Shown one piece after another: positions 3,643-26,150 of a stretch of 64,000 nt of DNA; positions within the stretch are counted from its first letter, which is position 1, and each line of letters starts with the position of its first letter. The stretch is from a virus: IMG/VR virus record IMGVR_UViG_3300029310_000398, positions 1 to 64,000 of that record; one strand, given 5' to 3'. Below the pieces are notes generated by a model. That model had not been told where the DNA came from. It did not search any database and saw only the letters and a list, made by a program, of their open reading frames with translations. The position numbers were made by a program, and so were the translations under genes.

Positions 3643-3654
3643 CGACTAAAACGA

Positions 3655-4440: not shown

Positions 4441-4449
4441 GAGGCTGCT

Positions 4450-4698: not shown

Positions 4699-4725
4699 GG
4701 GTAAAAATTGAAAGGAGAAAAAGAT

Positions 4726-5388: not shown

Positions 5389-5449
5389 TGCCCAAATGAG
5401 GGCGGGGAAGTCCCCGCCCTCTCTTGCGAAGAAGAAAGGAGAATACATT

Positions 5450-6133: not shown

Positions 6134-6135
6134 AA

Positions 6136-7047
6136 ATGGAACGACTCACCATCCGCCTTCCTGATGGACAGGCTTGTGTTGACTGCAACCGCTGTAAGTC
6201 TGAGCGCACGGGAGAGTCTACCGATGTAAAGGAGATGTGCTCTACACTCTATTGCCGCAACCGGCTGAAAGACCGGCTGGCGGCTTTCGAGGACACTTTC
6301 CTTGACCCTGAAGAGCTGCTGACGCTCAGGCAGGAGAACGAGACCCTCCGCCGCATTCTGGGCGAGAGGTTCGGACCCGCCCCAGACGCCTCTGTACCTG
6401 AACTGGTCGGAGCCATCAGCGATAAGATGCGAGAGACAGGCGAAACCATCTACGCGCTTCGGCACGAGTTGGATGTTCTCAAGTCCACTTATCGCCCGAA
6501 CTGCGTCAACTGTGAGCACATCCACAGGGATAACTTCAACTGCACAGCCGTAGGTGGGTTCTGTACCGCTGTTCCTGCTGCCCATTGCCCGAAGCTGAAG
6601 GAGCTGATGGCTGAAAAGGCGGCGTCTCAGGAGAAACAGGCGAACGTGCCCCAAAGAGACCACAGCGAGTTTCTGGAACGTTGGGCCACAGAGCTGAACA
6701 ACAGAAACGAACGGAACGTTGTTCCTGCAGCTCTGAAGGCCGTCAAAGGCCTTGTAGTAGTCTATGCTGCGTCGGATGACCTCGTGGAAATCGAGGGCGC
6801 TATGACGCAGGAAATCGGCGCCTTTAACGGTGTTAAGCTGACTGCGAGTAAGACTCAAGGTTTCTTTGAGACAGCCGCTGGCGAGCCGGACATCGAGTTT
6901 CGTTGGTGCGATGACAACTCCGGCGACTCTGTCTGCCCGTGGTCTGTCATCTGCAACCTTCCCCATCGGAAGTTCGATATTCTCGATGATGAAGGGTATG
7001 TTTCCAGCGTTGGCATCGTACTGCATATCGACGACATTCCGGAGTAA
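6136..7047 (+). CDS. hypothetical protein (303 aa), Cys-rich N-terminus
   Basis: GAAAGGAGACTGAAA precedes the ATG. The MERLTIRLPDG..C..C..C opening followed by a short coiled segment is common in Firmicutes mobile-element proteins (recall only). Confidence 0.75.
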   Translation: MERLTIRLPDGQACVDCNRCKSERTGESTDVKEMCSTLYCRNRLKDRLAAFEDTFLDPEELLTLRQENETLRRILGERFGPAPDASVPELVGAISDKMRETGETIYALRHELDVLKSTYRPNCVNCEHIHRDNFNCTAVGGFCTAVPAAHCPKLKELMAEKAASQEKQANVPQRDHSEFLERWATELNNRNERNVVPAALKAVKGLVVVYAASDDLVEIEGAMTQEIGAFNGVKLTASKTQGFFETAAGEPDIEFRWCDDNSGDSVCPWSVICNLPHRKFDILDDEGYVSSVGIVLHIDDIPE

Positions 7048-7080
7048 GTGAGTTTCCAAAAAGTGAAAGGAGTATATTTT

Positions 7081-8319
7081 ATGAACAAGAACGACAAGGG
7101 CTATGTTATCTGCGTCACACCTACCGGCAGCGACCTGCCATTTGTGCCCAACGTGGAGCACATTCGGAGAAGTGATTCGAGTGACCTCCCAAACCGTGCG
7201 GCGGCGCGTAAGGCAGAAAAGGATGGTATCAAAATCATCCATGATATGCCCAACGTACCGGACTGGACGTACATTGACACGCCGCAGAACCGTGAGAAAA
7301 TCACCGCGTGGCTGAAGGAGCATCCTGAGATGTGCTTCAAGAAGAATGAGCCTGCCGTGTCTACGCGGTATAAGGCTACCCTTCTTGTCCCTTCCAAGGA
7401 TGCCGAAATGTGTCAGGAACTGCTGGATATGCCTTGTGGCGAGGAGCATATTCCCGCTGTGGAGTCCGGTATTGGCAAGTATGCCGGTGTTCGTTGCTTC
7501 GGCCTGACGTTCCCTGATGGCTATACCGCAACCGTCACTGTTTGCTCTGATGACAAGGGATTCTATGTCAATCCCGTCCTCTGGAATGAGGAAATGTCTG
7601 ATGTCATGTGTCTGGCTTCTGAAAGCGAGCTGGAGGGCATCTACACCTTTGATTACTGCGACAATGTGTATGTCATGGAAGTCGTCAAAGATACGTCCAC
7701 ACCGGCGCTCCACGCAACTACTATCAGAATTCCTGCTGTGGTCGCAACGAAGTATATCAGCTATATGCAGGGCGAGAATGTTCCCAACAATATCATCTAT
7801 GCAACAAATGTCGTTATCGCTGAATATACCAACAAGTTTGACAACGGCTTCACCGCCGTCCTTCAGATTATCCGAAGGGAAGCTAAAGTTGTTGCGAATC
7901 TCGCACTGTATGATGCGAACGGCATCAACGTCTGGAACATGGATGATGACCGTTTGTTGCTGTGTACCAGCAGGTTCAACTACGGCAACGGCACCTACGA
8001 GGTCACAATCACAGACGAGCCGGCACCCAGCGACGAGAAGCAGGGATACTGGACGGAAATCCGTCACGATTTTCACGAGGAGTCTCCCATCGGCTACGGC
8101 GATGTTATTACCGCTGTTTCCATTGATGGCTGGCGTACTCCCGACGATGACGCTGAAGGCGAGGTCATTGCCCGTGTTTTCCTGACCAAGAAAGGTGATA
8201 TGGTTATTGATTATATCAATGCCATTGCCCGTATTGATGTGCTGGCACAGGAGGCTATCGACGAAACCGTGAAGGAACTGCGCGAGCAGTTCGTCAGCGA
8301 GGAAGGCTCAGATGAGTAG
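7081..8319 (+). CDS. hypothetical protein (412 aa)
   Basis: GAAAGGAGTATATTTT precedes ATG 7081. Its 3' end overlaps the next gene by 8 nt. Confidence 0.75.
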   Translation: MNKNDKGYVICVTPTGSDLPFVPNVEHIRRSDSSDLPNRAAARKAEKDGIKIIHDMPNVPDWTYIDTPQNREKITAWLKEHPEMCFKKNEPAVSTRYKATLLVPSKDAEMCQELLDMPCGEEHIPAVESGIGKYAGVRCFGLTFPDGYTATVTVCSDDKGFYVNPVLWNEEMSDVMCLASESELEGIYTFDYCDNVYVMEVVKDTSTPALHATTIRIPAVVATKYISYMQGENVPNNIIYATNVVIAEYTNKFDNGFTAVLQIIRREAKVVANLALYDANGINVWNMDDDRLLLCTSRFNYGNGTYEVTITDEPAPSDEKQGYWTEIRHDFHEESPIGYGDVITAVSIDGWRTPDDDAEGEVIARVFLTKKGDMVIDYINAIARIDVLAQEAIDETVKELREQFVSEEGSDE

Positions 8320-8656
8320 ACCGAAAAGAGGCGATATCATTATCGCCAAATTCGACCCCACTGATGGGGCGATGAAGTTTGGTGTTACAAGCACCCTTCT
8401 CGTCGTAAGCAACGATACGCTGCACGGAGTAACAGATTTCGTCTGGGTGTGTCCGTTGTCCTACGAAACTGAGTACGGCCCATACCATGTTATACTCGAT
8501 GAGAAGACGTGTCCTCCTCGTAGCGGAACCGTCCTGTGTGAGTATGTAAGCTATTTCAACATCATGGCGAACAAGTACGATGTTGTAGGTCATCTGCCCG
8601 ATGAGGTTCTCACTGAGGTACGGTCTGTCCTCTGTAACATTTTTTCTTGTTCTTAA
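8312..8656 (+). CDS. MazF/PemK/CcdB-fold toxin-like protein (114 aa)
   Basis: The pattern PKRGDIIIAKFDP..G......LVVSND.......VCPLS matches the PemK/MazF N-terminal signature as I remember it. Start overlaps the upstream gene. Confidence 0.45.
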   Translation: MSRPKRGDIIIAKFDPTDGAMKFGVTSTLLVVSNDTLHGVTDFVWVCPLSYETEYGPYHVILDEKTCPPRSGTVLCEYVSYFNIMANKYDVVGHLPDEVLTEVRSVLCNIFSCS

Positions 8657-8661
8657 CCCGC

Positions 8662-8693
8662 GAAAAAGCTCCCTTCGGGGAGCTTTTTCTTTT
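8662..8693 (+). terminator. intrinsic terminator closing cassette 2
   Basis: GAAAAAGCTCCC-TTCG-GGGAGCTTTTTC perfect 12-bp stem followed by TTTT. Confidence 0.85.
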
Positions 8694-8704
8694 GCCTGAA
8701 ATCA

Positions 8705-8903
8705 TTGACAAAATATCAAACTGTGGTAGTATAGAATTATAATTACGAAGCTATTTTTATAAAGGAGATTATCTCCGTTTTCCAAGTCACCTTAAAGAAT
8801 CAAGACAGTTATCCCAATCTTGGGATGGCTGTCTTTTTTTATATATCTACATACATTTTTGTGTTCCCGTAAGTCCTTCAAGGCTGGGAGAAAGGAGAAA
8901 CAA
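8705..8903 (+). promoter_or_regulatory. Promoter-leader-terminator module, copy 3 (heads cassette 3)
   Basis: -35 at 8705-8710, TAGTAT 8727-8732, TATAAT 8738-8743. Small hairpin 8764-8776. Leader terminator 8803-8834 with T-run to 8840. RBS block before GTG 8904. Confidence 0.8.
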
Positions 8904-13818: not shown

Positions 13819-13848
13819 AAAGAGGCCCGAAAGGGCTTCTTTTTTTTT
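13819..13848 (+). terminator. intrinsic terminator closing cassette 3
   Basis: AAAGAGGCCC-GAAA-GGGCTTCTTT followed by a run of 9 T. Confidence 0.85.
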
Positions 13849-13861
13849 GGCTCTGTAATGA

Positions 13862-14061
13862 TTGACAAAATATCAAACTGTGGTAGTATAGAATTATAAT
13901 TACGAAGCTATTTTTATAAAGGAGATTATCTCCGTTTTCCAAGTCACCATACGTAAATTCAGACAGTTATCCCGTTTCGGGGATAGCTGTCTTTTTTATA
14001 TATTTTCATACATTTGTGTTCCCATAAGTCCTTATCATAGGCAGGGAGAAAGGAGAAATTC
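13862..14061 (+). promoter_or_regulatory. Promoter-leader-terminator module, copy 4 (heads cassette 4)
   Basis: -35 at 13862-13867, TAGTAT 13884-13889, TATAAT 13895-13900. Small hairpin 13921-13933. Leader terminator 13961-13992 has an altered loop and upper stem (CCCGTTTCGGGGA), with T-run to 13997. Confidence 0.8.
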
Positions 14062-14625
14062 ATGACTGACTATCCTAATGAAATTGCCCGTTTAGACGCA
14101 CAGCGTCGAAAGAATCACGATGCCACCGCCTATGAGGAGCTTGACAAGGCCTATACCGAATCCGGTCATACCGTGTTCATTATGGCACTCAACGCCCTCA
14201 TTTCGCTGGGACGTGATACCGTCGCGGCCATGGCGCATCCTGCGGCTATCGCTGCGACTATCCAAGGGAACATCTTTTCCGAGGATTTCAAGCTGGAGGT
14301 CGGACGTATCGCACTGATGATGGCAAACGCCGACATCGACGTTCTGTTGGCCGTTATTCAGCGCATAGTCGTCCCCTTCACTGACCCTCAGGGCAAGCGC
14401 ATCCCGTTCCTGCACCCCAACGGCGACGAGGAGGACGTCTGCCCCGTGTGTGGCGCCGAGGTCGAATATCAGGGCGACCGTGAAATCGACTACAACGATG
14501 GTACGGAGGTGAGCTGGGAATGCCCCGTCTGCAAGGCGTTTGGCAAGGCACTGTACCACGACACCTTCCTCCAGCACGATTCTGTGATTGATGGGAATGG
14601 TGATTGCGTACACGACCGTGTCTGA
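14062..14625 (+). CDS. hypothetical protein (187 aa) with a C-terminal zinc ribbon
   Basis: Conserved RBS block precedes the ATG. CPVCGAEVEY...WECPVCKAFG provides two CxxC pairs. Confidence 0.8.
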   Translation: MTDYPNEIARLDAQRRKNHDATAYEELDKAYTESGHTVFIMALNALISLGRDTVAAMAHPAAIAATIQGNIFSEDFKLEVGRIALMMANADIDVLLAVIQRIVVPFTDPQGKRIPFLHPNGDEEDVCPVCGAEVEYQGDREIDYNDGTEVSWECPVCKAFGKALYHDTFLQHDSVIDGNGDCVHDRV

Positions 14626-14667
14626 GCATTCCCGCACGCTATACTCAAGAAGAAAGGAGAAAGCACC

Positions 14668-15291
14668 ATGACCAAGAACTTCAAGACGGTCGTTGAAGCA
14701 CTGAACGAGACCGGCTTCTATCTGGCCTTCTGCAATCTTGTCGTAAACAAGATTGTAAGAATCCCCATCAAGAAAATTATCTCCGCTGCGGAGGGAAACA
14801 TTGATGGCATTTCCAACTGGCTGGAACACGCTGTGAAAGACGCCTGCTCCGCTTTTAATCAGGACGTTACCATCGACGACCGGATTATGAAGATGGAGGG
14901 CGAGATTCTGCGTGTCACCCATTTCTGCTTTGACCCCCGCATCCGCGAGGCTTTCAAAGAAATGGGCTATGAGCGCATCTCAGAGGTGTACGAGTCCCGT
15001 GGCATCAACATCGAGGACACCGGTATGTTGGAGAAGGTCAAAAGCGTGTTCTGTACCTACGTCTTTCTGCTGAACCAGCAGGATAAGACGCTTGGTATCG
15101 ACCTCTCCGTTGTCCCTTCTGTGGGTTCCTACAGCATTCGTTTCAACGAGTGCATTCAGGACTCCATCGTATTCAAGGACGAGGCGGCAGCGAAAGCATT
15201 TGCCAAGGCAAACGGATTGGAGAAGCCGTTCATTTCCTTCTACAAGATGACTGCTTATTGGCAGCCCCTTGAGGAAGGAGATGCGGTGTGA
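14668..15291 (+). CDS. hypothetical protein (207 aa)
   Basis: GAAAGGAGAAAGCACC precedes the ATG. Confidence 0.75.
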   Translation: MTKNFKTVVEALNETGFYLAFCNLVVNKIVRIPIKKIISAAEGNIDGISNWLEHAVKDACSAFNQDVTIDDRIMKMEGEILRVTHFCFDPRIREAFKEMGYERISEVYESRGINIEDTGMLEKVKSVFCTYVFLLNQQDKTLGIDLSVVPSVGSYSIRFNECIQDSIVFKDEAAAKAFAKANGLEKPFISFYKMTAYWQPLEEGDAV

Positions 15292-15731
15292 GCACTTCTC
15301 AAACCACTTCCCTGCCGCTTGCTGCTGTCCGCATTAAAAATGCACGGCTGTCTCTGGAACTATCTCAGAGTCAGCTTGCAGAAAGGTGTGAGGTGACTCC
15401 ACAGACCATCTACAAGTATGAGTCTGGGCGAGTGGAGAATATCCCCCTGAAGACTTTGGAACGCTTCGCCGAGGTACTGGGCGTCTCCCCTGCTTATCTG
15501 GCGGGCTGGACGAACTCACCTGCCGGCACCAGCGTTCTGGATATTCAGGTACGAGGAGCCACTCTGCTCTGTGCCACCTGCCCCATCTGCGGAAGCCTGA
15601 AGTTCGGCCCGAAGCACGGAAGTGCCTATGGACCCGAAGCCCGTTGCTCCGACTGCGGTACAACATTCCGTCTCGATGCCGACCAGTTTCCTCTGAAGAC
15701 TGTTCGGCTTGGTATGTCACTGCTGGCCTGA
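15288..15731 (+). CDS. XRE-family HTH regulator fused to a zinc ribbon (147 aa)
   Basis: GTG overlaps the upstream stop. LSQSQLAERCEVTPQTIYKYESGRVENIPLKTLERFAEVLGVSPAYLAGW is an HTH_3 pattern. C-terminal CATCPICG....CSDCG. Confidence 0.8.
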   Translation: MSTSQTTSLPLAAVRIKNARLSLELSQSQLAERCEVTPQTIYKYESGRVENIPLKTLERFAEVLGVSPAYLAGWTNSPAGTSVLDIQVRGATLLCATCPICGSLKFGPKHGSAYGPEARCSDCGTTFRLDADQFPLKTVRLGMSLLA

Positions 15732-15763
15732 GCGCCAGCTTTTTGAAAGAAAGGAGAAAAAAC

Positions 15764-16189
15764 ATGACTATCACCCGTAATATTCCGATTCCCGACCCCA
15801 AGGCCACTATCACTTTCGAAATCGAGCTGACCCGCAGCGAGCTGGAGACCGCGTATCGTGAACAGGAGCGATACTACCGGCTGATGGATGCGGAAGGCCA
15901 GCTCTGCACATATCTGGGTTTCGATGTCAGTGACTTCGACCCCGATAACGAGGACGACGCCGAGAAGCTGGAGAGCTTCAAGGAAAAGTTCGGTGACACT
16001 GAGCCGGCATCTCTGGTCGATGAGGAGTCTCCGAACTATGTGCTGAACGATATCGTCGCTCAGTTCGAGCACGATGCTGACTGCAACAATGACGTGAACT
16101 CCACGTGGCAGAACGCCGTCGAGAAAGTGCTGAACATCCTGCAGGCGCGTCTCAACTACGAGGCGGTCAGCGGCGGTGATGAGGCATGA
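15764..16189 (+). CDS. strongly acidic hypothetical protein (141 aa)
   Basis: GAAAGGAGAAAAAAC precedes ATG 15764. By my count there are 33 D/E against 11 K/R. Confidence 0.75.
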   Translation: MTITRNIPIPDPKATITFEIELTRSELETAYREQERYYRLMDAEGQLCTYLGFDVSDFDPDNEDDAEKLESFKEKFGDTEPASLVDEESPNYVLNDIVAQFEHDADCNNDVNSTWQNAVEKVLNILQARLNYEAVSGGDEA

Positions 16190-16506
16190 GTATTCTGAGA
16201 TTCCCTGACAAGCGTTATCTCAAGAATGCCATTTGCGGCACTGTCACGTTGCTGCCCATTGCGGTGGTAGACCCGAAACCTTGTGTTGTCTCTGCGAGGC
16301 TGTACCCGCATCGCTATGATGGTGCGGCACTGTATCGTTATATCGTAGTGGATGCGGAGAACATCGGCATTATCTACGATGACGCGCAGGGGTACGGGTA
16401 CAAGAACGCTGAGGCCGCAAAACGAGCGTTTTCACACAAGTATCGCGGAATGTATCCCTTTAACTATGTGTGGCCTCCCGTGCGGGAAGCCGAATTTTAC
16501 GAATAA
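16186..16506 (+). CDS. hypothetical protein (106 aa)
   Basis: ATG overlaps the upstream stop. It shares a DDAQG(Y/F)GY...A.KA motif with the - strand gene at 36995-37393. Confidence 0.7.
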   Translation: MSILRFPDKRYLKNAICGTVTLLPIAVVDPKPCVVSARLYPHRYDGAALYRYIVVDAENIGIIYDDAQGYGYKNAEAAKRAFSHKYRGMYPFNYVWPPVREAEFYE

Positions 16507-16567
16507 CACAGAAGCCCCTGCGTCCTCTCTTTTTGGAGAGGACGCGGGGCTGAAAGGAGAAAAAACT

Positions 16568-17374
16568 ATGATAAGGACTGTTGAGATGCCTATTTTGCAT
16601 CGTGAAATCGCGGAGTTCCTCGACCCTCGCATCCATGAGGCTGCGCCGGGAACTCCGTCGTTTGCACTGCATGGTTTTCGCATCGACGACCGCGAGTATG
16701 TGATGGACTGCCTGCCCACCGTGGGACTCATGGTGGGCTACCGCATCGTCGAGACCGGTGAACTGGTTTCAGCGCTGCAGTTCGACAAGGGTGTTTCTGA
16801 GGAAAAACAGATTTTCCATGCGTTGCTGTTTGCACCTTGTGCGAAATATCTGGCGACGAAAAACTGCGTGTCTTCCCTGCCTGACGGGTCGTATGGTGAT
16901 ATTGAGTGCTTCTATATCATCTACAAAAACCCTGAGGCACGATGCTGGCTGCCTCGCTGTGAGACTCCTGTCATCGGGGCCGGCAATGCCGAGCAGCGAT
17001 TCACGACAGAAGTGCGGCTGAATACGATGGATGGCTTTGTAAGCTATCTGTATTTCGATTTCACAACCCGTGGCTCTTGCGGTACAAACTTCTTCAACTC
17101 CGTCTGCGAGAACGTCCAGCGTATGCTGCGTGAGGATTGGGACGCTCTGGCTGCCACCGTACCCGCCGTTTCTTACGATGCGGGAAGTGAAATTCTGTCC
17201 ATCCCCTTCTCGAATGTAAATGGCGATTATACGCTGATGGATTTCGAGAAGAAGTGGGCAGGGGCGCATGAGCTCACCTCACTGGTCACGTCGATTCGGC
17301 TGGTCAAAAACGACATCACACTGTATAAAGACAGTCGTTTCGATGCGCCGGAAGTGGAGGTCGTCCATGAGTAA
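16568..17374 (+). CDS. hypothetical protein (268 aa)
   Basis: GAAAGGAGAAAAAACT precedes ATG 16568. The track start at 16352 overlaps the previous gene and has no SD. Confidence 0.75.
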   Translation: MIRTVEMPILHREIAEFLDPRIHEAAPGTPSFALHGFRIDDREYVMDCLPTVGLMVGYRIVETGELVSALQFDKGVSEEKQIFHALLFAPCAKYLATKNCVSSLPDGSYGDIECFYIIYKNPEARCWLPRCETPVIGAGNAEQRFTTEVRLNTMDGFVSYLYFDFTTRGSCGTNFFNSVCENVQRMLREDWDALAATVPAVSYDAGSEILSIPFSNVNGDYTLMDFEKKWAGAHELTSLVTSIRLVKNDITLYKDSRFDAPEVEVVHE

Positions 17375-17600
17375 GAAGGCTGATGACCGCGTATACAAAG
17401 TCAAAATCCAGCGGCCAATCTTTCCTCCCGATGCTCCGTTTCTGGCAATGAGCGAGTGCGGCTGCATCCAGCCGACACTTCTTCAGGCAACACCGGAGCT
17501 GAAGGGCCTGCTTGGGGAAAGGCTGAAGGTGTATTGTGATTGCAAAATCGTGGACACAAAACTTGTCATCCTGCGGGAACGCACGGGCGACAACTGGTGA
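17367..17600 (+). CDS. hypothetical protein (77 aa)
   Basis: ATG 17367 overlaps the upstream stop by 8 nt, consistent with translational coupling. The track start at 17268 lies inside the previous gene. Confidence 0.6.
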   Translation: MSKKADDRVYKVKIQRPIFPPDAPFLAMSECGCIQPTLLQATPELKGLLGERLKVYCDCKIVDTKLVILRERTGDNW

Positions 17601-17612
17601 AAGGAGAAAGAT

Positions 17613-18197
17613 ATGGGACGTAAAGCAACTCGTTCCGCCGAAGAAATAGCCAAGGCAAAACGGGATATGTTCATCAGAACCGCCGAAAAGCGTGTCGGAC
17701 GTATTCTGGACGGTCTGGATATGCTGGAGTGCCTGTCTACCCGTTATAGCGGGTACTACACTGAGGAACAGGTCAATGCCATGTTCAGTGCCATCCGCAA
17801 GAAGGTGGATGAAGCCGAGAAGAGCTTCCGGACGAACGGGAAAACAAAGCTGTTTTCCTTTTCCGATGAATCCACTTCCTGCGGAGAGTTCAACCTCGAA
17901 GCCGGCGAGCGCATCGGTATCTCGTTGAAGGTCATCAATGACTGCAATATGAGCGTAGCACCCAATAAGCTGGAAGTTGAGACCTTCCCTGACGGCAGCG
18001 AACCGACTTACTATGAGCTATTCAACAGCGAAGGTATGCTTTGCTGCTGTGATGGCGAGGTCGTCACTGTGGTACGCACCGGCGTCGATAAAAATGGCGT
18101 CGAAGCTGCGTGGTTGTATGCCACTGACTCCAACGGTGAGACTGGGCCTGAGTTTTCTCTGCCCATTGAAGCTCTGAAGGTCGGCGTGTTCCGCTGA
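17613..18197 (+). CDS. hypothetical protein (194 aa)
   Basis: GAAAGGAGAAAGAT precedes the ATG. Basic N-terminal helical segment. Confidence 0.75.
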   Translation: MGRKATRSAEEIAKAKRDMFIRTAEKRVGRILDGLDMLECLSTRYSGYYTEEQVNAMFSAIRKKVDEAEKSFRTNGKTKLFSFSDESTSCGEFNLEAGERIGISLKVINDCNMSVAPNKLEVETFPDGSEPTYYELFNSEGMLCCCDGEVVTVVRTGVDKNGVEAAWLYATDSNGETGPEFSLPIEALKVGVFR

Positions 18198-18217
18198 AAA
18201 AGGAAAGGAGAAAAAGA

Positions 18218-19621
18218 ATGAATCATTTTTGCTACAACTCTCTATTCGGGTTTTCTGAGAAGAAGCTGAAAAAAATGGAAGACAACCACCGTATCGTAGT
18301 GGATGGCGACCTCATCGACTCTGCAAAGGCATACGAAGACATTATGCAGAGTGATGTTTTCAGGCATATATCATGCCGATTCGTCCCGGAGGGCGATGTA
18401 AAAAATAAGAGGGGCATCAGAATATACGATAACGTTTTTCGGGCCTATGTAAAGGAACGCGGCTACGTGCTGCCTACTTCCGAGGCGAGCGACGTTTTCT
18501 TTGCCGAGGCTGAGAAGGGCGTTGTCGTGAATGTGACTGCCACGGAACTGGCGGAGCGCTATATTCGTGAACGGCTGCATCAGACCAAGGAAAAGCTCAT
18601 TCCTTTGTCTATGCTTGAGCTTCACCTCCTGCTGGTCATGGGCATCTGCAGCATAAAGGACGGCAAGCCGTTTGGCAAGGACGGGAAGTGGCTGAATGGC
18701 TACATCAATGTCTACAATGCTGCGACCTTCCCTGATTTGGTTTGCTACATCACCGGCAAGGATTGCAGAGTGGCGCCGTTTGCCTCGTACACATGGAACG
18801 AAATTCTCGCCGTGTGTGAAGGCAACAACAATCTGGCTGTTCGGGTATTCAACGCGCTTCGGGAGGATGCGACACACTCATGGACTCCTGAGGGAGTCGT
18901 TGCTTTCTTCACCGATTTAGGCATGGAGGACAGTGCCGGTGAGGATGACGACGAGGACAACCTCATCCACGTGGAGAAGCACTACGAGGTCTCTGACGGT
19001 CTGGCGAAGGCACTCGGTTACAAGGGCGACCTGTTCACCATGGACGTTGCGGATTTCAACCGTGTCTCTTCGCGGCTGGGGAACCTGCACTGCCTCGTCG
19101 AAGCCATCCCTGAAATCATCCATGACAGAGACTTCAGCCGGTTTTCTTCCATGAGCATGAACGGCTACTGGAACGTGCTTCTGAATTTGGCGCTGACCAA
19201 TCTCATTGAGGACCTGCGTATCCATGCTATTGCACGTAACTCCGATACTGGCGTTGTCATTGATGTCGATGGCAAGAAGCAGGAAGTCACTGGCGGCAAG
19301 AATACCTCCAAGGAGGAGTCATCGGAAAGTGAAGCCTTCTGGGACTTCAAGACCATTTGGCTGTACTGCCGAACGGCTGATTTTGCCAAGTCAAAGGACC
19401 GTGAGATGTTGCGGACTCTTTGGGACAATATGGTTGAGGACCAGCACATCGTTCCAAAGAGCGCTGAGTACAAGCTGCTGCTTGTTAAGCTCTGGGGCAT
19501 CTTGAATGCCGAAGAAACCGATGGACATATCACTGCCGGCAATCGCCCCACTCTTATCCGCAATCGTTTTTTCGGATTCTGGGATGATTTTGCCAAGTTC
19601 ATGGGTGAGCATCTTTCCTGA
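18218..19621 (+). CDS. hypothetical protein (467 aa), last gene of cassette 4
   Basis: GGAAAGGAGAAAAAGA precedes the ATG. Long clean ORF. Confidence 0.8.
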   Translation: MNHFCYNSLFGFSEKKLKKMEDNHRIVVDGDLIDSAKAYEDIMQSDVFRHISCRFVPEGDVKNKRGIRIYDNVFRAYVKERGYVLPTSEASDVFFAEAEKGVVVNVTATELAERYIRERLHQTKEKLIPLSMLELHLLLVMGICSIKDGKPFGKDGKWLNGYINVYNAATFPDLVCYITGKDCRVAPFASYTWNEILAVCEGNNNLAVRVFNALREDATHSWTPEGVVAFFTDLGMEDSAGEDDDEDNLIHVEKHYEVSDGLAKALGYKGDLFTMDVADFNRVSSRLGNLHCLVEAIPEIIHDRDFSRFSSMSMNGYWNVLLNLALTNLIEDLRIHAIARNSDTGVVIDVDGKKQEVTGGKNTSKEESSESEAFWDFKTIWLYCRTADFAKSKDREMLRTLWDNMVEDQHIVPKSAEYKLLLVKLWGILNAEETDGHITAGNRPTLIRNRFFGFWDDFAKFMGEHLS

Positions 19622-19657
19622 AAACTTTTCACAGCAAAGCACTGATTTTTCCACTAA

Positions 19658-19688
19658 GAAAAGCTCCTTCGGGGGCTTTTCTTTTTTT
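19658..19688 (+). terminator. intrinsic terminator closing cassette 4
   Basis: GAAAAGCTCC-TTCG-GGGGCTTTTC followed by TTTTTTT. Confidence 0.85.
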
Positions 19689-19775
19689 CTCAATTTTTGC
19701 TGAATTTGAAAGAAAGAAAACGCTCGAAAATGGCTTGGTTATGCGGTTTTCATGGACTATGTTTGTTCCTGTTCT

Positions 19776-19887
19776 CCCGACTAAAATCTCAAATTTTTAT
19801 TCGGTTTTTCCCGACTAAAGTTTAGTTCTTATAACTCTGATTTCCCGACTAAAATTGCAATTTGAAAATTCGGAAATCCCGACTAAA
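19776..19887. repeat. four direct CCCGACTAAA iterons with exact 34-bp phasing
   Basis: CCCGACTAAA occurs at 19776, 19810, 19844 and 19878. Each copy is preceded by a T/A-rich run. The array sits in a 250-bp non-coding gap just upstream of module copy 5. Confidence 0.85.
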
Positions 19888-19936
19888 ATCAAAAAACAGT
19901 GCAAATGTAATAAACGCAATTTGGTGCCTAAAATGA

Positions 19937-20115
19937 TTGACAAAATATCAAACTGTGGTAGTATAGAATTATAATTACGAAGCTATTTTTATAAAGGAGA
20001 TTATCTCCGTTTTCCAAGTCACCACATAAATTCAGACAGTTATCCCAATCTTGGGGTAGCTGTCTTTTTTTATATATTTATTGCATTTTTCGACAACAAA
20101 GAAAGGAGAAACACC
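19937..20115 (+). promoter_or_regulatory. Promoter-leader-terminator module, copy 5 (heads cassette 5)
   Basis: -35 at 19937-19942, TAGTAT 19959-19964, TATAAT 19970-19975. Small hairpin 19996-20008. Leader terminator 20034-20065 with T-run to 20071. This copy lacks the CCCGTAAG..GGGA block and has a plain GAAAGGAGAAA RBS. Confidence 0.8.
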
Positions 20116-20298
20116 ATGAAGTACAAGAAGCTCACCAAACATGAGCGAGACACGCACCCGTCCATTCACTGTACGGGCAGCGTGCGCGGCATGAAGGAAC
20201 GTGGGTTGTGGGACAAGGATGCCGAGTGTGTTCGCTGCGGCAACCACATCTACAACCTGTCCGTTACCATCCCGCCCTACCCTGCTGATGGCTGCTGA
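20116..20298 (+). CDS. hypothetical protein (60 aa)
   Basis: GAAAGGAGAAACACC precedes the ATG. Contains C..(n)..CVRCG cysteines. Confidence 0.65.
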   Translation: MKYKKLTKHERDTHPSIHCTGSVRGMKERGLWDKDAECVRCGNHIYNLSVTIPPYPADGC

Positions 20299-20331
20299 TG
20301 CAATCGACTTCAAAAGAAAGGAGAAATTATT

Positions 20332-20637
20332 ATGAATACATCTACGCTGCATTTCATCGACTGCACTCTGTCCACGTATCGGAACGAGCTGCTGTTCAAC
20401 CCTTCCAACAAGATGCCTGCCCGTGAGGTCAACGACGCACTGAGCAAGCTACTGGAGCTGCCGGAGGTCTGCGGTAAGGTGCGCGATACCCTGACCACCC
20501 ACCTGAACGACCGGCGTGGCTATGCCCGTGATTTGAGCAAGCCCGCGCCCACTGTCGCCGAGGTGATTACGTCCATGGAGTTCGCACTGGGTGCCGCATA
20601 TGCGGCAGCAATGAAGAAGAGAGGTGAGCAGAAGTGA
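20332..20637 (+). CDS. hypothetical protein (101 aa)
   Basis: GAAAGGAGAAATTATT precedes the ATG. Confidence 0.7.
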   Translation: MNTSTLHFIDCTLSTYRNELLFNPSNKMPAREVNDALSKLLELPEVCGKVRDTLTTHLNDRRGYARDLSKPAPTVAEVITSMEFALGAAYAAAMKKRGEQK

Positions 20638-20843
20638 GTAAGCATCGTTGGACTATCGAGGAACTGAAGAACGTCAATGACGCTCAGTTCGCTATGGCGA
20701 TTCTGATGGAACGCCGCAGTGAGTTATCGAATCCCTACACCCCGTTCGCACAGCGCCTTACCAGCGTCATCAATACGCTGACGGACATGGCTGTGGATGG
20801 CGGGCTGACAGACGAAGAAAGGAGTAAGAACAATGGCCGCTGA
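20634..20843 (+). CDS. hypothetical protein (69 aa); donor of the duplicated C-terminal tail
   Basis: GAGGTGAGCAGAA precedes GTG 20634. Its C-terminal 35 aa (YTPFAQRLTSV.NTLTDMAVDGGLTDEERSKNNG) recur at the end of the next gene. Confidence 0.65.
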   Translation: MSKHRWTIEELKNVNDAQFAMAILMERRSELSNPYTPFAQRLTSVINTLTDMAVDGGLTDEERSKNNGR

Positions 20844-21619
20844 AATGAGACTTTACCGCGTAACGGTTATCGGCAGCAATGCCGAAAGGAAGCGCGGAAA
20901 AGTGGTGGAAGAGGTCACAGTCAAGGTCGGAACCAAGTGGCTGACGGACGATAACGGTCGGCGTTACTACAAGGTGCCGCTTGAGGACGCAAACCGAAAC
21001 CTCTACTTCCAGCTCAACACCATGTACTGCATGGACTACCGGCTGTATCAGACAGAGCAGGCCGCCAAGGATTACCTTCGGCAAGCGGAACTGCGTGTGG
21101 CGCTTTGCAAGGCGGTGAGCAATTTCGGCTTCAACGCTCCCCTGCCTGTGCTGGAGAAGGTCATGGATACGCTGAAATACACCCCGTTCGCACAGCGTCT
21201 CACCAGCGTCTTCAATACGCTGACGGACATGGCTGTGGATGGCGGGTTGACGGACGAAGAAAGGAGCAAGAACAATGGCTGTTGAGATGAGACTCTACCG
21301 CGTGCCTATTATCGGTAGTAATGCCGAACGGCGGCACGGAAAGGTGGTGGATGAGGTCACGGTCAAGGTTGGAACCAAGTGGCTGACAGACAATAGAGAC
21401 TGTCGATACTACAAGGCTCCTTCCGAAGATGCGAACAGAAATCCCTATTTCCAGCAGAACTCCATGTACTGGAGTACAGATTACCGGCTGTATCAGACGG
21501 AACAGGCTGCCAAGGACTATCACCATCAGGCGGAATTGCTCATAGCTCTTCGCAGAGCCGTTGGCGACTTCGGCTTCAACGCCCCGTTGACCGTGCTGGA
21601 GAAGGTCATGGACACTCTC
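20736..21619 (+). repeat. tandem segmental duplication, 2 x 442 bp
   Basis: Unit 1 (20736-21177) and unit 2 (21178-about 21619) both begin TACACCCCGTTCGCACAGCG. By eye they align at roughly 85-90% identity at the ends and less in the middle. Confidence 0.8.
20833..21285 (+). CDS. hypothetical protein (150 aa), paralog A with a grafted tail
   Basis: GAAAGGAGTAAGAACA precedes the ATG. Residues 1-115 are paralogous to 21275-21643. The tail duplicates the C-terminus of 20634-20843. Confidence 0.7.
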   Translation: MAAEMRLYRVTVIGSNAERKRGKVVEEVTVKVGTKWLTDDNGRRYYKVPLEDANRNLYFQLNTMYCMDYRLYQTEQAAKDYLRQAELRVALCKAVSNFGFNAPLPVLEKVMDTLKYTPFAQRLTSVFNTLTDMAVDGGLTDEERSKNNGC

Positions 21620-21643
21620 AAGGAAGGCGGATGCTTGAAATGA
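21275..21643 (+). CDS. hypothetical protein (122 aa), paralog B
   Basis: GAAAGGAGCAAGAACA precedes the ATG. The opening MAVEMRLYRVPIIGSNAER.. parallels MAAEMRLYRVTVIGSNAER.. Confidence 0.7.
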   Translation: MAVEMRLYRVPIIGSNAERRHGKVVDEVTVKVGTKWLTDNRDCRYYKAPSEDANRNPYFQQNSMYWSTDYRLYQTEQAAKDYHHQAELLIALRRAVGDFGFNAPLTVLEKVMDTLKEGGCLK

Positions 21644-22419
21644 GTACAAAAATCTTTGACGCTTGGCGTATCAACTCTACCGACATCGGGGAGTTGGTCA
21701 AGCTCGGCAATGAGATTCGGGAAGTGCAGCAGAAGTCCTTCGTGGACGCTGTCTACAACTCGCTCGATTTCTGCCAGCTCGCTATCATCTTCGCCAAAAG
21801 GTCTGTAGAGAATGTCGAGGAACTCAGGCCTGTTTTTGCGTCAATCGCCGCGAACGTCGTTCACAAGTGTGTTCTGATGTACGACTGGACGCCGTCTTTC
21901 ACGATGACGGATAACGCCAAAAGCTCTGCGGAACAGATTCTGCAGAAGGAGGCTCAGAAACGGAAGATTTCATTGACAGTAGAGCAGAAGAAAAATTTGC
22001 TCGACGTTATCACTGAAATCTACGAAATCGTCTCCCGTGATTGGCAGGCGTCACTGCTGTTCCTCAGGGGCGATAATGGCAGTACCTACATGAAAGGGTT
22101 CAATCTCACCAGAGAAGCGACCCATTTCATCGACTCCCAATATCCCCGCTTTGAGTACACCGACCAGACGGAGATGAATATTTCAGACTTCAACGAGTAC
22201 ACACGGCAGTACATTGACGCTGCAAAGACGGAAGAAGAACGCTATGAGAGGCTCTTGGAGGCCCAGCACGAACGTGGAGAACTGTGGGACAAAGCATTCG
22301 CAGGCCAAAGTGTATGGCGCGATGCCGGTCTCTCCATCTCCCTTGTGCCGGCACAGCTTCAGGAACAGTTCGTGGCTATTCATTCCATCTGCAAAAAGGT
22401 GTTCGGTGTCGAAGCCTGA
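21631..22419 (+). CDS. hypothetical protein (262 aa)
   Basis: ATG 21631 overlaps the upstream gene end; ATG 21640 is an alternative. Long clean ORF. Confidence 0.7.
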   Translation: MLEMSTKIFDAWRINSTDIGELVKLGNEIREVQQKSFVDAVYNSLDFCQLAIIFAKRSVENVEELRPVFASIAANVVHKCVLMYDWTPSFTMTDNAKSSAEQILQKEAQKRKISLTVEQKKNLLDVITEIYEIVSRDWQASLLFLRGDNGSTYMKGFNLTREATHFIDSQYPRFEYTDQTEMNISDFNEYTRQYIDAAKTEEERYERLLEAQHERGELWDKAFAGQSVWRDAGLSISLVPAQLQEQFVAIHSICKKVFGVEA

Positions 22420-22443
22420 CGAAAAAAAGAAAGGAGAAAAATC

Positions 22444-23085
22444 ATGGAGAATAACCAAAAAAACGCTGCGGAGGTCAAGACCAGCGTCCCTGACCTGATT
22501 CCGTCCAACTACCGCGAAAAGGCAGAAGCACTGGGCTGGGTCATCGACGAGGACAAGGTCTGTGGTGTGTTCACGTTCAGGCAGTGGTCGCCTGCCGGCG
22601 AGGACTATTCCTTCGACCTGTACGCCGACGATGACTTCTGCGACGGTGTGGCTGCTGCGGTGCGCCGTGTCTACGATGACTTTGACATCGACGAACACGT
22701 TGGACTGTTCGCAGAGGCTTCTATGAGAGGTGAGTCCGGCGTTCCGAAGCTGTCGATTCTTGTCGATGACGCTAAGGAAATCGACGAGATGCTTCTCACG
22801 CTCGCCGAAGCGTTTGAAGACATCGAATCTGATACATCAGAGCGGGAGCAGAAGGCATATACCCGCTGCTGCCCCAACTGTGGTGGCGTATCTTTCTCTG
22901 GTCATCAGGTCCTCCACATTGATGTGTTGGTTGACATCGAAACGGGAGATTTCCTCGGAAATATCAACGACGAAATCGAATCTAACATCTACGAGTCGTC
23001 TGACCCCTACGGTCCATATCACTGCATGACCTGCGGATTTGAATGCGACAACCTTTCCGAGCTGGAAAAGAGCGAGGTGGAGTAA
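22444..23085 (+). CDS. acidic hypothetical protein (213 aa) with a C-terminal zinc ribbon
   Basis: GAAAGGAGAAAAATC precedes the ATG. Contains CCPNCGG....YHCMTCGFEC. Confidence 0.75.
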   Translation: MENNQKNAAEVKTSVPDLIPSNYREKAEALGWVIDEDKVCGVFTFRQWSPAGEDYSFDLYADDDFCDGVAAAVRRVYDDFDIDEHVGLFAEASMRGESGVPKLSILVDDAKEIDEMLLTLAEAFEDIESDTSEREQKAYTRCCPNCGGVSFSGHQVLHIDVLVDIETGDFLGNINDEIESNIYESSDPYGPYHCMTCGFECDNLSELEKSEVE

Positions 23086-23090
23086 CTCTA

Positions 23091-23252
23091 ATGTCGATTA
23101 TTCTTTACTTCGCACTGACCATTCTCGTGATGTGCGGCATATTCCTTGGCATAAGGAGACTGGACACACAGGACCTCTTGCCGCCAATCATCTGCAGCGT
23201 TTCTGTGGGCGTTATTATGGTGGAACTGTTCGCCCTTGTTCGGTGGTATTAA
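23091..23252 (+). CDS. small membrane protein (53 aa)
   Basis: ATG 23091 lies 6 nt after the upstream stop. Two hydrophobic segments. The track start at 23043 lies inside the previous gene. Confidence 0.5.
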   Translation: MSIILYFALTILVMCGIFLGIRRLDTQDLLPPIICSVSVGVIMVELFALVRWY

Positions 23253-23266
23253 CGGAGGTGAAGGAC

Positions 23267-23443
23267 GTGTTCAAAATGCTGACGAACCCCTTGTTTATAG
23301 CCTATGTCGTTCTTATCATCGCCGCAATGGTCGTCTCAGTCATAGCCGCAAAAAAATCAGACCAGCCAGAAATGCTTCCGGCTGCCTTTGGTACTATTGC
23401 GCTCACCATCGTTTTGGTTATTGTAGCGGTCATAACCGGTTAA
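23267..23443 (+). CDS. small membrane protein (58 aa)
   Basis: GGAGGTG lies 6 nt before GTG 23267. Two hydrophobic helices: LFIAYVVLIIAAMVVSVIAA and AAFGTIALTIVLVIVAVITG. Confidence 0.55.
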   Translation: MFKMLTNPLFIAYVVLIIAAMVVSVIAAKKSDQPEMLPAAFGTIALTIVLVIVAVITG

Positions 23444-23511
23444 ATTAAAGCCAGCGGGAGGGGCGCTCTGCCTCTCCCCTGCTTAAAAAAGAAAAGGAAG
23501 GAGATATTCGA

Positions 23512-23730
23512 ATGGCATACAGCATTGCTGAAATCGCGGCCATCAAAGCGGAGTATCCCGCAGGCACAAGAATCAGACTGAAACACATGGACGAAAGCAA
23601 GTTTCCTGTGGCAGACGGCACGACCGGTAAAGTCACTTATGTGGACGATAACGGCCAGATTCATATGCGTTGGGATAATGGCCGCACGCTGCCGCTCGTT
23701 CCGGGCGTCGATGATTTCGACAAAATCTGA
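23512..23730 (+). CDS. DUF4314-like small protein (72 aa)
   Basis: AAAGGAAGGAGATATTCGA precedes the ATG. The pattern G.R..L..M.....V..GT.G.V..VDD.GQIH..WDNG..L resembles DUF4314 of Firmicutes conjugative elements (recall only). Confidence 0.4.
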   Translation: MAYSIAEIAAIKAEYPAGTRIRLKHMDESKFPVADGTTGKVTYVDDNGQIHMRWDNGRTLPLVPGVDDFDKI

Positions 23731-23762
23731 GCTGTTTTTTTCAAAAAGAAAGGAGAAAAATT

Positions 23763-24803
23763 ATGGGTAATACATCTATCGGAGCCGCTGCATCTTTCTG
23801 CAACGAGAACACGCTGGTCAAGGTCTACCGCTATAATCCTAAGTACGACAGGTTCGAGACGACCTTCGTTCCTTTCAAGGACATCCGCAAGAGCGATTCT
23901 GTGAGCGTCTTTGCCAGTGATGGGCACGAGATGCACTTTTCCGTTCTCACAAATGCTTCTTTTAAGAAGGACGAGCGATACGGGAACGAGTGCGGTTGGT
24001 CTGTGAAAGTCACTGAGGACGGCGGCAAGACGGAGATGGTTCTTCGTCCCACCGATTTCGCGCCCTACATCATCAGCCTTTCCGTTACCGACGAAGGAGA
24101 GTGGCGCGGCTGCCGGCTGCTTTTCGAAAGCGTCCTCAACGACACCGAAGCTATCGTCAACAATATGCGGGCGCGATTCGAGCCGCGTGTTGCGCCGGAA
24201 AACACCTGCGGGCGGCATTCCGACACAGTTGCGGCCATGGCGAAGAGAGACCTTACTCGTGAGTGGACGGAGCAGTTCGGCTTCCGGCTCATTTCGGACA
24301 GCGTAAACTTCGCCCAGTGCAGTGTGAAGGACATTCTCTCTGATAAGTTCTTCAATCCCCCTGCCATGGAGTTGACGTTCTTCGCCTATTCCGACGGCGA
24401 GTATTCAGCGTCCCCCCTGTTCTTTGCCAAACTGCCCGATTTGGGCGAACGGTACAACAAGCCTGAGGGACGTGCTGCAATCGCAGAACTGCTGCAGAAG
24501 CTGGATGAGATGTACGGCGACCTGCCTGAAGACACAACAAAATGGGCTCTGGAGTATCAGCTTTGGGCTCGTATGCTGCTGGCAGAAGGTGCGGTCATGC
24601 TGAATCCGAAGCACCTCGACCTCCCCGACTGCGCCTACGAATTCAAAACGCTGGCTTTCGGTAATAAAATGCTGAAAGACAGCGGTGACGGTATTGCGTG
24701 GGCAAAGGCTGTCAAAACACCTATCAGCGTAATCGCCGAGGCGTGGGAGAATGACATGAGCGAGTCCGGCGATGAGGCTTTTACCTGCATCGTGACGGGC
24801 TGA
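23763..24803 (+). CDS. hypothetical protein (346 aa), paralog 1 of a tandem pair
   Basis: GAAAGGAGAAAAATT precedes the ATG. It shares FFAKLP.LG....PEG......L.KLDE.YGDLP..T..W.LEYQLWARMLL.EGAVMLNPK with the next gene. Confidence 0.8.
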   Translation: MGNTSIGAAASFCNENTLVKVYRYNPKYDRFETTFVPFKDIRKSDSVSVFASDGHEMHFSVLTNASFKKDERYGNECGWSVKVTEDGGKTEMVLRPTDFAPYIISLSVTDEGEWRGCRLLFESVLNDTEAIVNNMRARFEPRVAPENTCGRHSDTVAAMAKRDLTREWTEQFGFRLISDSVNFAQCSVKDILSDKFFNPPAMELTFFAYSDGEYSASPLFFAKLPDLGERYNKPEGRAAIAELLQKLDEMYGDLPEDTTKWALEYQLWARMLLAEGAVMLNPKHLDLPDCAYEFKTLAFGNKMLKDSGDGIAWAKAVKTPISVIAEAWENDMSESGDEAFTCIVTG

Positions 24804-24817
24804 AAGGAGAAAAACAT

Positions 24818-25870
24818 ATGGATATGCCGATTTCGAACAAGCGAAAGCTGCACTGCGACGAGAACGTACTGGTCCACATTGTGCGCTACTGCCATGATAC
24901 GGATGACGCAGATGGCGACGGCGTCAGAGAGGTGGAAATGTACGTCCCCTTCAAGCACATTTGCAAGGGCGATGCCATTGATATTCCTGATAAGGACACC
25001 GACGATGCCTTCAGAACAACCGCCTATGCTGCGGAAGACGCTTCGTACAACGAGGCTAAGGCGGGTGGTTGGTTTGTGCCGGTCGCCTGCACTGGGCAGA
25101 AAGATTACATTCTGAAGCCCGACGATTTCGCACCTTGGCTCGTGACACTGAGCGTTGTGTTCACGAACGGGTCGTCCTGCAAGCTCTTTTTCGAGTGCGT
25201 GGAACGAAGCGAAGAGAAGCTGCGGGCAAACATCCGCAGAATCTTTGACGATGTGCCGACGCTGCGGCATGAGATGGGCTTCGTTGCCCTCGTCCGCCAT
25301 ATGGCATGGAAGTACCTCACACCGGAAAGAACGGAGCCTCTCGGCTTCAGATTCCTTTCGGATGATGTCGTCTGGAGCAACTGCAAAGTGAAGGACATCC
25401 TTCCTGACCGGTTCTTCGCGGCGGCTGACATGAAGCTGACGTTTTACGCCTATGCGGAAGATGAGTATTCTGGGAATCCTCTGTTCTTTGCAAAGCTGCC
25501 GTATCTCGGTACGCATCACGGACATCCTGAAGGTTGTGTGATTTGCGCTTCCATCCTGCGGAAACTGGATGAGCTGTATGGCGACCTGCCGACGGAAACG
25601 TCCCGTTGGTCGCTGGAATACCAGCTCTGGGCGCGTATGCTGCTCTCTGAGGGAGCAGTTATGCTCAATCCGAAGTACATTGACTTGCGCCAAGACGGTG
25701 CGCTTGATGCGCTTCTGGAGGACATTCCGATGATTGATGGTTTCGCCGATGACGTCGCTTGGCGTCGTGTGGCAGGTGTACCCATCGACGAAATCCATGA
25801 AGTGTGGGATGCGAGTTCGGATGATGGTGTCGCTCCGTTCACCTATACCGTCCGAGCAAAAATCCTTTGA
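24818..25870 (+). CDS. hypothetical protein (350 aa), paralog 2
   Basis: GAAAGGAGAAAAACAT precedes the ATG. Collinear similarity to 23763-24803. Confidence 0.8.
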   Translation: MDMPISNKRKLHCDENVLVHIVRYCHDTDDADGDGVREVEMYVPFKHICKGDAIDIPDKDTDDAFRTTAYAAEDASYNEAKAGGWFVPVACTGQKDYILKPDDFAPWLVTLSVVFTNGSSCKLFFECVERSEEKLRANIRRIFDDVPTLRHEMGFVALVRHMAWKYLTPERTEPLGFRFLSDDVVWSNCKVKDILPDRFFAAADMKLTFYAYAEDEYSGNPLFFAKLPYLGTHHGHPEGCVICASILRKLDELYGDLPTETSRWSLEYQLWARMLLSEGAVMLNPKYIDLRQDGALDALLEDIPMIDGFADDVAWRRVAGVPIDEIHEVWDASSDDGVAPFTYTVRAKIL

Positions 25871-25902: not shown

Positions 25903-25933
25903 AAAAGAAGCTCCTTCGGGAGCTTCTTTTTTT
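25903..25933 (+). terminator. intrinsic terminator closing cassette 5
   Basis: AAAAGAAGCTCC-TTCG-GGAGCTTCTTTT perfect stem followed by TTT. Confidence 0.85.
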
Positions 25934-25946
25934 GCGCCAAAAGGAA

Positions 25947-26150
25947 TTGACAAAATATCAAACTGTGGTAGTATAGAATTATAATTACGAAGCTATTTTT
26001 ATAAAGGAGATTATCTCCGTTTTCAAGTCACCACAAAGAATCAAGACAGTTACTTCCCTTTTCTGGGAAGTGACTGTCTTTTTCTATATATAACATTTTT
26101 TGGATTCCCGTAAGTCCTTATTACAGGCTGGGAGAAAGGAGAAAAAGACC
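25947..26150 (+). promoter_or_regulatory. Promoter-leader-terminator module, copy 6 (heads cassette 6)
   Basis: -35 at 25947-25952, TAGTAT 25969-25974, TATAAT 25980-25985. Small hairpin 26006-26018. Leader terminator 26044-26079 has a rebuilt 15-bp stem (AGACAGTTACTTCCC/GGGAAGTGACTGTCT), with T-run to 26084. RBS block before ATG 26151. Confidence 0.8.

Follow-up and report, generated by a model that had tools for sequence, protein, structure and literature searches.

Two operons of the 64-kb window analyzed here (the whole 64,000-nucleotide stretch of viral DNA) are separated by four boxes that likely form a phased direct-repeat array for a dedicated DNA-binding protein, as suggested by their fixed core and register, drifting spacers, single orientation, and unstructured duplex. 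As to its role, we tentatively favor an accessory nucleoprotein site of the operator or insulator type, which would act locally and in cis on the flanking operons. A backbone centromere or origin is unlikely for an array that sister elements can do without, that occurs only once in the element, and that is placed in a variable cargo region. The first-pass annotation had likened the repeats to partition centromeres, plasmid replication iterons, and arrays bound by a dedicated regulator; the last option is supported in kind by the invariant cores, fixed spacing, and drifting spacers, whereas the first two are disfavored by the absence of the array from sisters and of Par or Rep matches from the flanking operons.

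The 10-mer CCCGACTAAA occurs at positions 19776, 19810, 19844, and 19878, only on the plus strand, and allowing one mismatch adds no further copy on either strand of the 64-kb window. The underlying 11-nt core, TCCCGACTAAA, starts at 19775, 19809, 19843, and 19877 in a single orientation, with a period of exactly 34 bp, and the conserved unit in register reads TCCCGACTAAA[A/G]T, that is, 11 invariant positions followed by A or G and then T. These results bear out the earlier description of four same-orientation copies at exact 34-bp phasing, coordinates included, and its placement of the array in a noncoding gap between the terminator of module 4 (19656-19690) and module 5 (promoter at 19937-19964). 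The boxes are as follows.

19775..19787, plus strand: box 1, TCCCGACTAAAAT, exact match, unchanged in all array-bearing relatives
19809..19821, plus strand: box 2, TCCCGACTAAAGT, 11-nt core invariant; position 12 varies (G here, T in locus L042)
19843..19855, plus strand: box 3, TCCCGACTAAAAT, exact match
19877..19889, plus strand: box 4, TCCCGACTAAAAT, centered ~88 bp upstream of the predicted transcription start

The four boxes fit in a 112-bp fragment. Their centers lie at about −88, −122, −156, and −190 from the predicted start site; box 4 ends 47 bp upstream of the −35 element, and together the boxes span 47-160 bp upstream of it. Outside the core, the other 24 positions of each 34-bp unit show 40% identity between units, compared to 31% predicted from composition, and when the 12 invariant columns among the 34 were permuted, none of 100,000 permutations placed 11 of them in a row. 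An invariant core amid diverged spacers of fixed length argues that the array is not a recently duplicated minisatellite.

The comparison with relatives points in the same direction. All 10 array-bearing loci that were read (L002, L004, L011, L042, L043, L221, L247 to L249, and the window itself) keep four copies in the 34-bp register; another 21 contigs were grouped by look-up with the three loci that it returned, their sequences lying outside the ten read. The carriers are close relatives, with a neighboring 467-aa protein that is at least 87% identical, and the most diverged of them, L042, has flanking genes that are 87.5-90% identical to those of the window. Between L042 and the window, none of the 44 core positions has changed, compared to 6 of 72 spacer positions and 8 of the 49 positions between box 4 and the −35 element, and the three spacers are free of indels; cores and register are thus kept while neighboring noncoding bases change at 8-16%. 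The probability of seeing no change in 44 core positions, calculated from this one moderately diverged relative, is ~0.01 if unconstrained divergence is ~10% and ~0.13 if the local block diverges at ~4.5%. We take this as suggestive, although not conclusive, evidence that selection maintains the boxes and their register but leaves the spacer sequences free to drift.

These observations bear on the possibility that the array is a nonfunctional hitchhiker, either a decayed minisatellite or a captured repeat without a present role. The array is indeed lineage specific and dispensable, unrelated tandem repeats containing the same 9-mer are common in public genomes, and one Lachnospiraceae chromosome has four CCCGACTAAAAA units arrayed 32-34 bp apart (L096). 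Yet neutral decay would not spare 11 contiguous columns while others drop to 40% identity, nor does it fit the way in which L042 retains cores and register next to changing noncoding bases, and we therefore consider a hitchhiker rather unlikely.

A genome-wide scan for three copies of CCGACTAAA, permissive by design, gave at least 120 loci, nearly all of them unrelated tandem repeats or REP-like palindromes; the element itself did not appear among the matches listed. Three families of repeats recurred there. In metagenome-assembled genomes (MAGs) of Lachnospiraceae and other Clostridia, intergenic tandem arrays with a 53-bp period consist of inverted-repeat units, CCCGACTAAA-N17/18 (purine rich)-TTTAGTCGGG (L052, L054, L061, L064, L069, L075, L076, L081, L109, L112, L122, L141, L150, and L159). 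Several of these hairpin arrays occur per genome, beside unrelated housekeeping genes, in hosts of 28-45% G+C, and no link to the array in the window is evident beyond the common 10-mer. In Bacteroidales MAGs, 12 loci have three direct copies of CAAAAAGTCCGACTAAAAAGTGTA at 32-33-bp spacing (L048, L050, L066, L068, L071, L087, L091, L105, L108, L117, L127, and L143), and in at least 10 of them the copies adjoin a conserved gene for a ~432-aa AAA_14/DUF4143 ATPase, so that they are probably a conserved regulatory array of that gene family. Neither of these, nor the third family, intergenic repeats of mitis-group streptococci, has a Par or Rep context, and all three were treated as unrelated to the array studied here.

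Near and distant BLAST searches with the region gave no match in phage and plasmid collections, the motif pair turned up in metagenomes in just one more copy of the element, and a literature search for the motif returned primers and similar sequences only. Several identities, namely −10 elements of alternative σ factors, T7/T3-type promoters, the Spo0A box, the KorB operator, and the CsrA motif, were set aside because the fits are partial and the 64 kb contain no other copies. A 31-codon hydrophobic open reading frame over boxes 1 and 2 (19730-19825, MAWLCGFHGLCLFLF...) is probably spurious, given its weak Shine-Dalgarno sequence and a stop codon that is not conserved in L042.

On neither strand does the region 19690-19936 fold better than its shuffles (z of +1.2 and +0.55), which argues for a duplex site rather than a hairpin element. 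For the same reason, single-stranded DNA promoters of the Frpo type, sso/ssi sites, and hairpin repeats were excluded. CRISPR-type repeats are ~28-37 nt long, usually with a hairpin, and alternate with spacers at a period of at least 60 nt; a CRISPR array or RNA anti-CRISPR repeats were rejected here, where conservation is confined to 11-13 nt, the boxes recur every 34 nt, and hairpins are absent. The folding result also weighs against an RNA-level element, in which a minus-strand transcript with four UUUAGUCGGGA motifs would be read by an RNA-binding protein. Such a transcript could start from a promoter-like TTTATA-16-TATAAT at 19995-19968 that is directed into the array, and two paralogues encoded downstream in module 5, with subthreshold matches to Phage_ProQ_C_like, could supply the binder. 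However, besides the lack of structure above shuffles on both strands and of any Rfam match other than weak ones to terminators, exact 34-nt phasing has no obvious rationale in RNA, and module 5 also exists without the array; we give this alternative hardly any credence. The promoter-like site itself is present on the minus strand of every cassette, directed back over the main promoter toward the upstream gap, and may possibly give rise to an antisense or divergent transcript. The paralogues (150 and 122 aa) result from a tandem gene duplication (20736-21029/21178-21471 and 21034-21176/21479-21621) with 77-83% DNA identity.

The gap that holds the array is itself unusual. It measures ~250 bp, with 33.6% G+C compared to a window mean of 51%, and module 5 is the only module with such a gap, the distance from terminator to promoter being ~12 nt in the other five of six. 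Its parts and borders are the following.

19656..19690, plus strand: intrinsic terminator that closes module 4, the upstream operon; relatives lacking the array have it too
19689..19930, no strand: 242-bp AT-rich array segment, delimited by blastn breakpoints; a sister lineage has a 62-65-bp spacer instead
19690..19775, no strand: nonrepeat DNA to the left of the boxes, with higher conservation than the array spacers
19937..19964, plus strand: module-5 σA-type promoter (TTGACA, 16 bp, TG-n-TAGTAT), identical in the six cassettes of the window
20034..20072, plus strand: terminator-like hairpin in the cassette leader, with a stem that covaries between cassettes

Window and L042 are 97.4% identical over 19622-19775, compared to 91.7% in the array spacers. 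The left part of the gap (19690-19775) is also better conserved between the two than the flanking genes are, and it contains a purine run (19708-19720) complementary to the T-run of the terminator.

The first-pass annotation had further pointed to related motifs next to the −35 element of module 2 (at 3643) and in a terminator loop (at 49554); both turn out to lie at chance level. The former, CGACTAAAAcga, is one variant of a generic A-rich linker of ~12 nt that joins terminator and −35 element in every module, others being GCCTGAAATCA, ACAGCAAAAGCGA, GGCTCTGTAATGA, and TAGTTTGAAATGA, among more. An 8-mer such as that at 49554 is expected about twice in the 128 kb of two-strand sequence, and the window shows no excess of 13-mer matches at three mismatches or fewer (12, compared to 13.6 expected).

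Outside its close relatives, the array is dispensable. In IMGVR contig 3300045988_183830 (174 kb), the module-3 terminator is joined directly to the cassette and genes of module 5, so that module 4 and the array are both missing while the same promoter and operon are present. The array is also absent from two sets of relatives that keep module 4: L228 and L229, a diverged lineage whose HTH protein is 70% identical, and L234 to L238, in which the last gene of the module encodes shorter forms of 359-371 aa. In both, the homologous terminator is followed by a 62-65-bp spacer to the cassette. A blastn comparison with the short-form lineage gives 95% identity up to 19273, a break at 19274-19588, 80-84% identity over the terminator, and a second break at 19689-19930, after which similarity resumes in the cassette. 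Conservation of motif and spacing in relatives, on which the first-pass annotation had staked its reading, is therefore only half of what is seen: both are kept in close relatives, and the array is absent from sister elements. No replacement array was found in the regions of the sister elements that were read. The annotation had also suggested looking for further copies in the complete element; in whole-collection scans, the related 105-190-kb contigs contain no second motif cluster at spacings of 10-85 bp, and ~400 kb of related sequence contain no other noncoding array with three or more copies of any 9-mer. Comparison of these sequences shows that the array is optional for the element and is its sole cluster of the motif.

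This distribution counts against an accessory partition centromere of the parC type, in which an adaptor would coat the repeats into a solenoid-like segrosome moved by a filament-forming or ParA-type NTPase. The layout is similar to that of parC(C) of pCW3 from Clostridium perfringens, a ParMRC (type II) centromere with four 17-bp repeats in 192 bp (PMC9426499): four separated repeats of one orientation extend over ~110-190 bp of AT-rich DNA, in the AT-rich ~200 bp upstream of a promoter, with one cluster per element or, here, per 105-190-kb contig. A nonintegral helical phasing would also suit DNA wrapping. What type II and type Ib centromeres have in common is thus present as far as the direct-repeat array of four same-orientation boxes is concerned, binding of an adaptor being putative, but modules 4 and 5 show no operon for an NTPase and an adaptor. 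In pCW3, parC immediately precedes parM-parR and the three are conserved together, whereas the present array has no flanking ATPase or adaptor genes. The ParB-, ParR-, or RepA-like genes that the first-pass annotation had proposed to search for do not appear in the flanking operons: Pfam and PHROG searches of modules 4 and 5 gave no Rep, ParA, ParB, ParM, TubZ, or RHH family match, and a motif scan of these operons found neither a Walker A nor an actin phosphate-1 motif, which leaves no detectable actin-like, tubulin-like, or Walker-type ATPase and no RHH adaptor there. Nor is the array conserved with the backbone (183830, L228, L229, and L234 to L238): it sits in a variable cargo region, and the short-form sisters, which are ~95% identical in the adjoining module-4 genes (the one shared stretch compared), lack it without replacement in the regions read. 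A centromere of this type is in our view unlikely.

Replication-related iterons, whether as an origin, as a copy control locus acting by handcuffing, or as a polar fork barrier with an initiator or terminator protein, fare worse still. Iterons are usually 17-22 bp long at ~22-bp spacing, which is about two helical turns, next to rep and with a matching set at the origin, as in P1 incA and F incC, and auxiliary iteron arrays can be dispensable. The array resembles these theta-replicon iterons in its same-orientation repeats with a conserved core and variable spacers. It also lies in AT-rich DNA directly downstream of a large orphan gene, whose 467-aa product has no Pfam, PHROG, or PDB match and no feature that would mark it as a Rep protein, and its ACTAAA core is loosely similar to that of the Bacillus RTP Ter site. 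It differs from iterons in its 34-bp period and in having no matching set in the 105-190-kb contigs. Moreover, there is no cluster of DnaA boxes and no switch in GC skew at 19.8 kb, where the cumulative skew keeps rising, the flanks contain no Rep family match, and the array is missing from sister elements. Taken together, this makes a role in replication very improbable.

If the array serves a dedicated protein, the most conspicuous candidate is next door. The break at 19274-19588 described above falls in the 3' part of the gene for the 467-aa protein, and it defines, together with the array segment (19689-19930), the two adjacent features that separate the lineage of the window from its short-form sisters.

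19274..19621, plus strand: codes for the C-terminal ~116 aa of the 467-aa protein and is restricted to the array-bearing lineage

As part of the operator or insulator reading, and held just as tentatively, the array may have been gained together with this orphan C-terminal extension. The extension is the leading partner candidate by linkage only, and a weak one, since its co-occurrence with the array probably reflects a single evolutionary event. The 467-aa protein has close homologs only, with no Pfam, PHROG, PDB, or remote match, its AlphaFold model is unusable (pLDDT of 34), and when 1.84 billion representative proteins were searched exhaustively by HMMER, the C-terminal domain retrieved only itself. 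Alternative candidates are the XRE-HTH/Zn-ribbon protein encoded in the same operon (15288-15731) or a host factor.

The array has to be seen against the peculiar organization of the element around it. The window contains six promoter cassettes of ~175 bp (9-183, 3634-3808, 8684-8858, 13841-14015, 19916-20090, and 25926-26100; −35 boxes at 30, 3655, 8705, 13862, 19937, and 25947), which share an identical 33-bp promoter, TTGACAAAATATCAAACTGTGGTAGTATAGAAT. Each has a leader of ~95 nt with a short GGAGA..TCTCC hairpin and, as a further part, the terminator-like hairpin, whose stem covaries between copies, and most copies have a conserved ribosome-binding region, TTCCCGTAAGTCC...GGGAGAAAGGAGAAA. 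To express the genes that follow, transcription would have to read through two leader hairpins. Every cassette precedes a same-strand block of genes whose functions are mostly unassigned, the recognizable domains including DUF4942, zeta toxin, XRE HTH, AAA_5 with VWA, Fic, and HD. The remainder of the window encodes a topoisomerase III, a flotillin-like protein, a nonspecific nuclease, a tRNA-Ser, and two giant adhesins with TQ and thioester domains; tblastn of the topoisomerase against plasmids gave matches of at most 42% identity in unrelated taxa. The tRNA-Ser(TGA) gene lies amid cargo genes (37822-37909, minus strand). The giant surface proteins, of 1,876 and 1,354 aa (52469-58099 and 59881-63945, minus strand), carry 5 and 11 TQ ester-bond domains, to which the larger one adds SpaA-fold repeats and a thioester domain, a makeup typical of Gram-positive adhesins on conjugative elements. 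Related contigs of 105-190 kb have 8-9 cassettes, and genes for a large serine recombinase, a RecD2-like helicase, and a YqaJ exonuclease are found in related contigs. The length of 188-198 kb at which many independent assemblies stop points to ~190 kb for the complete element, a Gram-positive mobile element of the human gut.

Near-identical relatives differ by entire operons between cassettes, with junctions in the cassettes (3808-8656 and 13862-19936 in the window; L004 and L033). Module 2, for example, is missing from IMGVR contig 183585, as module 4 is from contig 183830. This pattern implies that modules shuffle, presumably through homologous recombination between the repeated cassettes, and it leaves little for the boxes to do as arm-type sites of a recombinase or transposase marking a module junction. 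Direct repeats do lie at a junction of operon gain and loss, and relatives encode the large serine recombinase and carry IS605/IscB-type insertions, but neither the window nor the contigs have an inverted partner or a second site, no recombinase gene is adjacent, and recombination between identical cassettes already explains module exchange; we regard arm sites as extremely improbable. The insertions themselves sit at differing points of module 4 and its neighbors (L042 7848-9332, L228 1667-3136, L232 4431-5717, and L236 3564-4682); they contain RRXRR/HNH (IscB-like) genes or an IS605 OrfB/TnpB gene and attest to an active traffic of small elements in the module-4 region.

The closest parallels to this organization are the establishment regulons of the Gram-positive conjugative plasmids p576 and pLS20, in which a conserved regulatory sequence stands in front of each variable operon (PMC6294495, PMC8708921). 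In p576, several establishment operons have near-identical promoters and are controlled via direct-repeat operators of an RHH repressor, different operator configurations giving different responses to the one repressor (PMC6294495). The element studied here likewise divides its cargo into operons, each headed by a near-identical strong σA promoter and a regulatory sequence. Despite the similar arrangement, its cassettes differ from the establishment-gene regulatory sequences (EGeRS) of these plasmids in sequence and structure, and the array, although also made of short direct repeats near a promoter, differs from the operators. Reg576 heptamers (TTATCCC) form contiguous pairs that abut the −35 element or the ribosome-binding site at every promoter of the regulon, whereas the present boxes are 11-13 bp long, 34 bp apart, 47-160 bp upstream of the −35 element, and found at one of the six cassettes of the window. 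Contiguous heptamers at a −35 element or ribosome-binding site, as in the Reg576/EGeRS2 type, are lacking, degenerate copies of the motif are not enriched, and modules 4 and 5 have no match to the RHH family through which Reg576 works. TTATCCC, the exact Reg576 heptamer, does occur in the terminator stem, once per cassette (20040-20050 and the equivalent position elsewhere), probably by coincidence, since compensatory variants replace it in other cassettes.

The likeness of the surrounding operons to an establishment or anti-defense region, with DUF4942, zeta toxin, and Fic next to numerous strongly acidic proteins, would suit a decoy, i.e., a titration site that sequesters a DNA-binding protein of the host or of a rival element for incompatibility or anti-defense. 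The array is optional cargo with no partner encoded nearby, as a decoy would be, but the idea is purely speculative, nothing points to a target protein, and four sites make a small sink, which together render it very unlikely. The acidic proteins, many of which are encoded in modules 4 and 5 (14062-25870), have net charges of −15 to −34 and no family assignment and are reminiscent of DNA-mimic anti-restriction proteins. A more adventurous combination, which we hold to be decidedly unlikely though not negligible, is that array and orphan C-terminal domain form an undescribed cis-acting DNA-protein pair, optional cargo in such a region: either a self-contained module for tethering or as a decoy, or else a switch made of wrapped nucleoprotein by which one operon leaves a uniform multipromoter regulon.

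In the operator or insulator reading that we prefer, a sequence-specific DNA-binding protein would dock on the array with one protomer or dimer per box. As 34 bp correspond to ~3.2 helical turns, neighboring protomers would be rotated by ~85 degrees and the four boxes would complete roughly one turn of a superhelix. Binding to a single face is thus less likely than a cooperative complex with wrapped DNA; for classical cooperative repressors, a 3.2-turn spacing is unusual. Such a complex would most likely act locally as an operator, silencer, or insulator, either giving its own control to one of at least six otherwise identical promoters or shielding the two operons from each other. With boxes at about −88 to −190, any effect on the promoter would require looping, wrapping, or spreading instead of simple occlusion. 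This distance counts against an operator, as does the existence of the module-5 promoter and operon without the array in contig 183830.

The array thus adds a new example, confined to one lineage, to a familiar kind of feature, and the modular promoter-leader cassettes that head exchangeable cargo operons are the more notable feature of the element. Without a partner, the repeats would look ordinary and be of interest to their lineage alone. Should there be a specific binder, on the other hand, the four 11-bp boxes in 112 bp would offer a compact handle on the regulation of ~190-kb mobile elements of the human gut, a very common and uncharacterized class, and the binder would either show how a uniform regulon singles out one operon or reveal a new DNA-binding domain.
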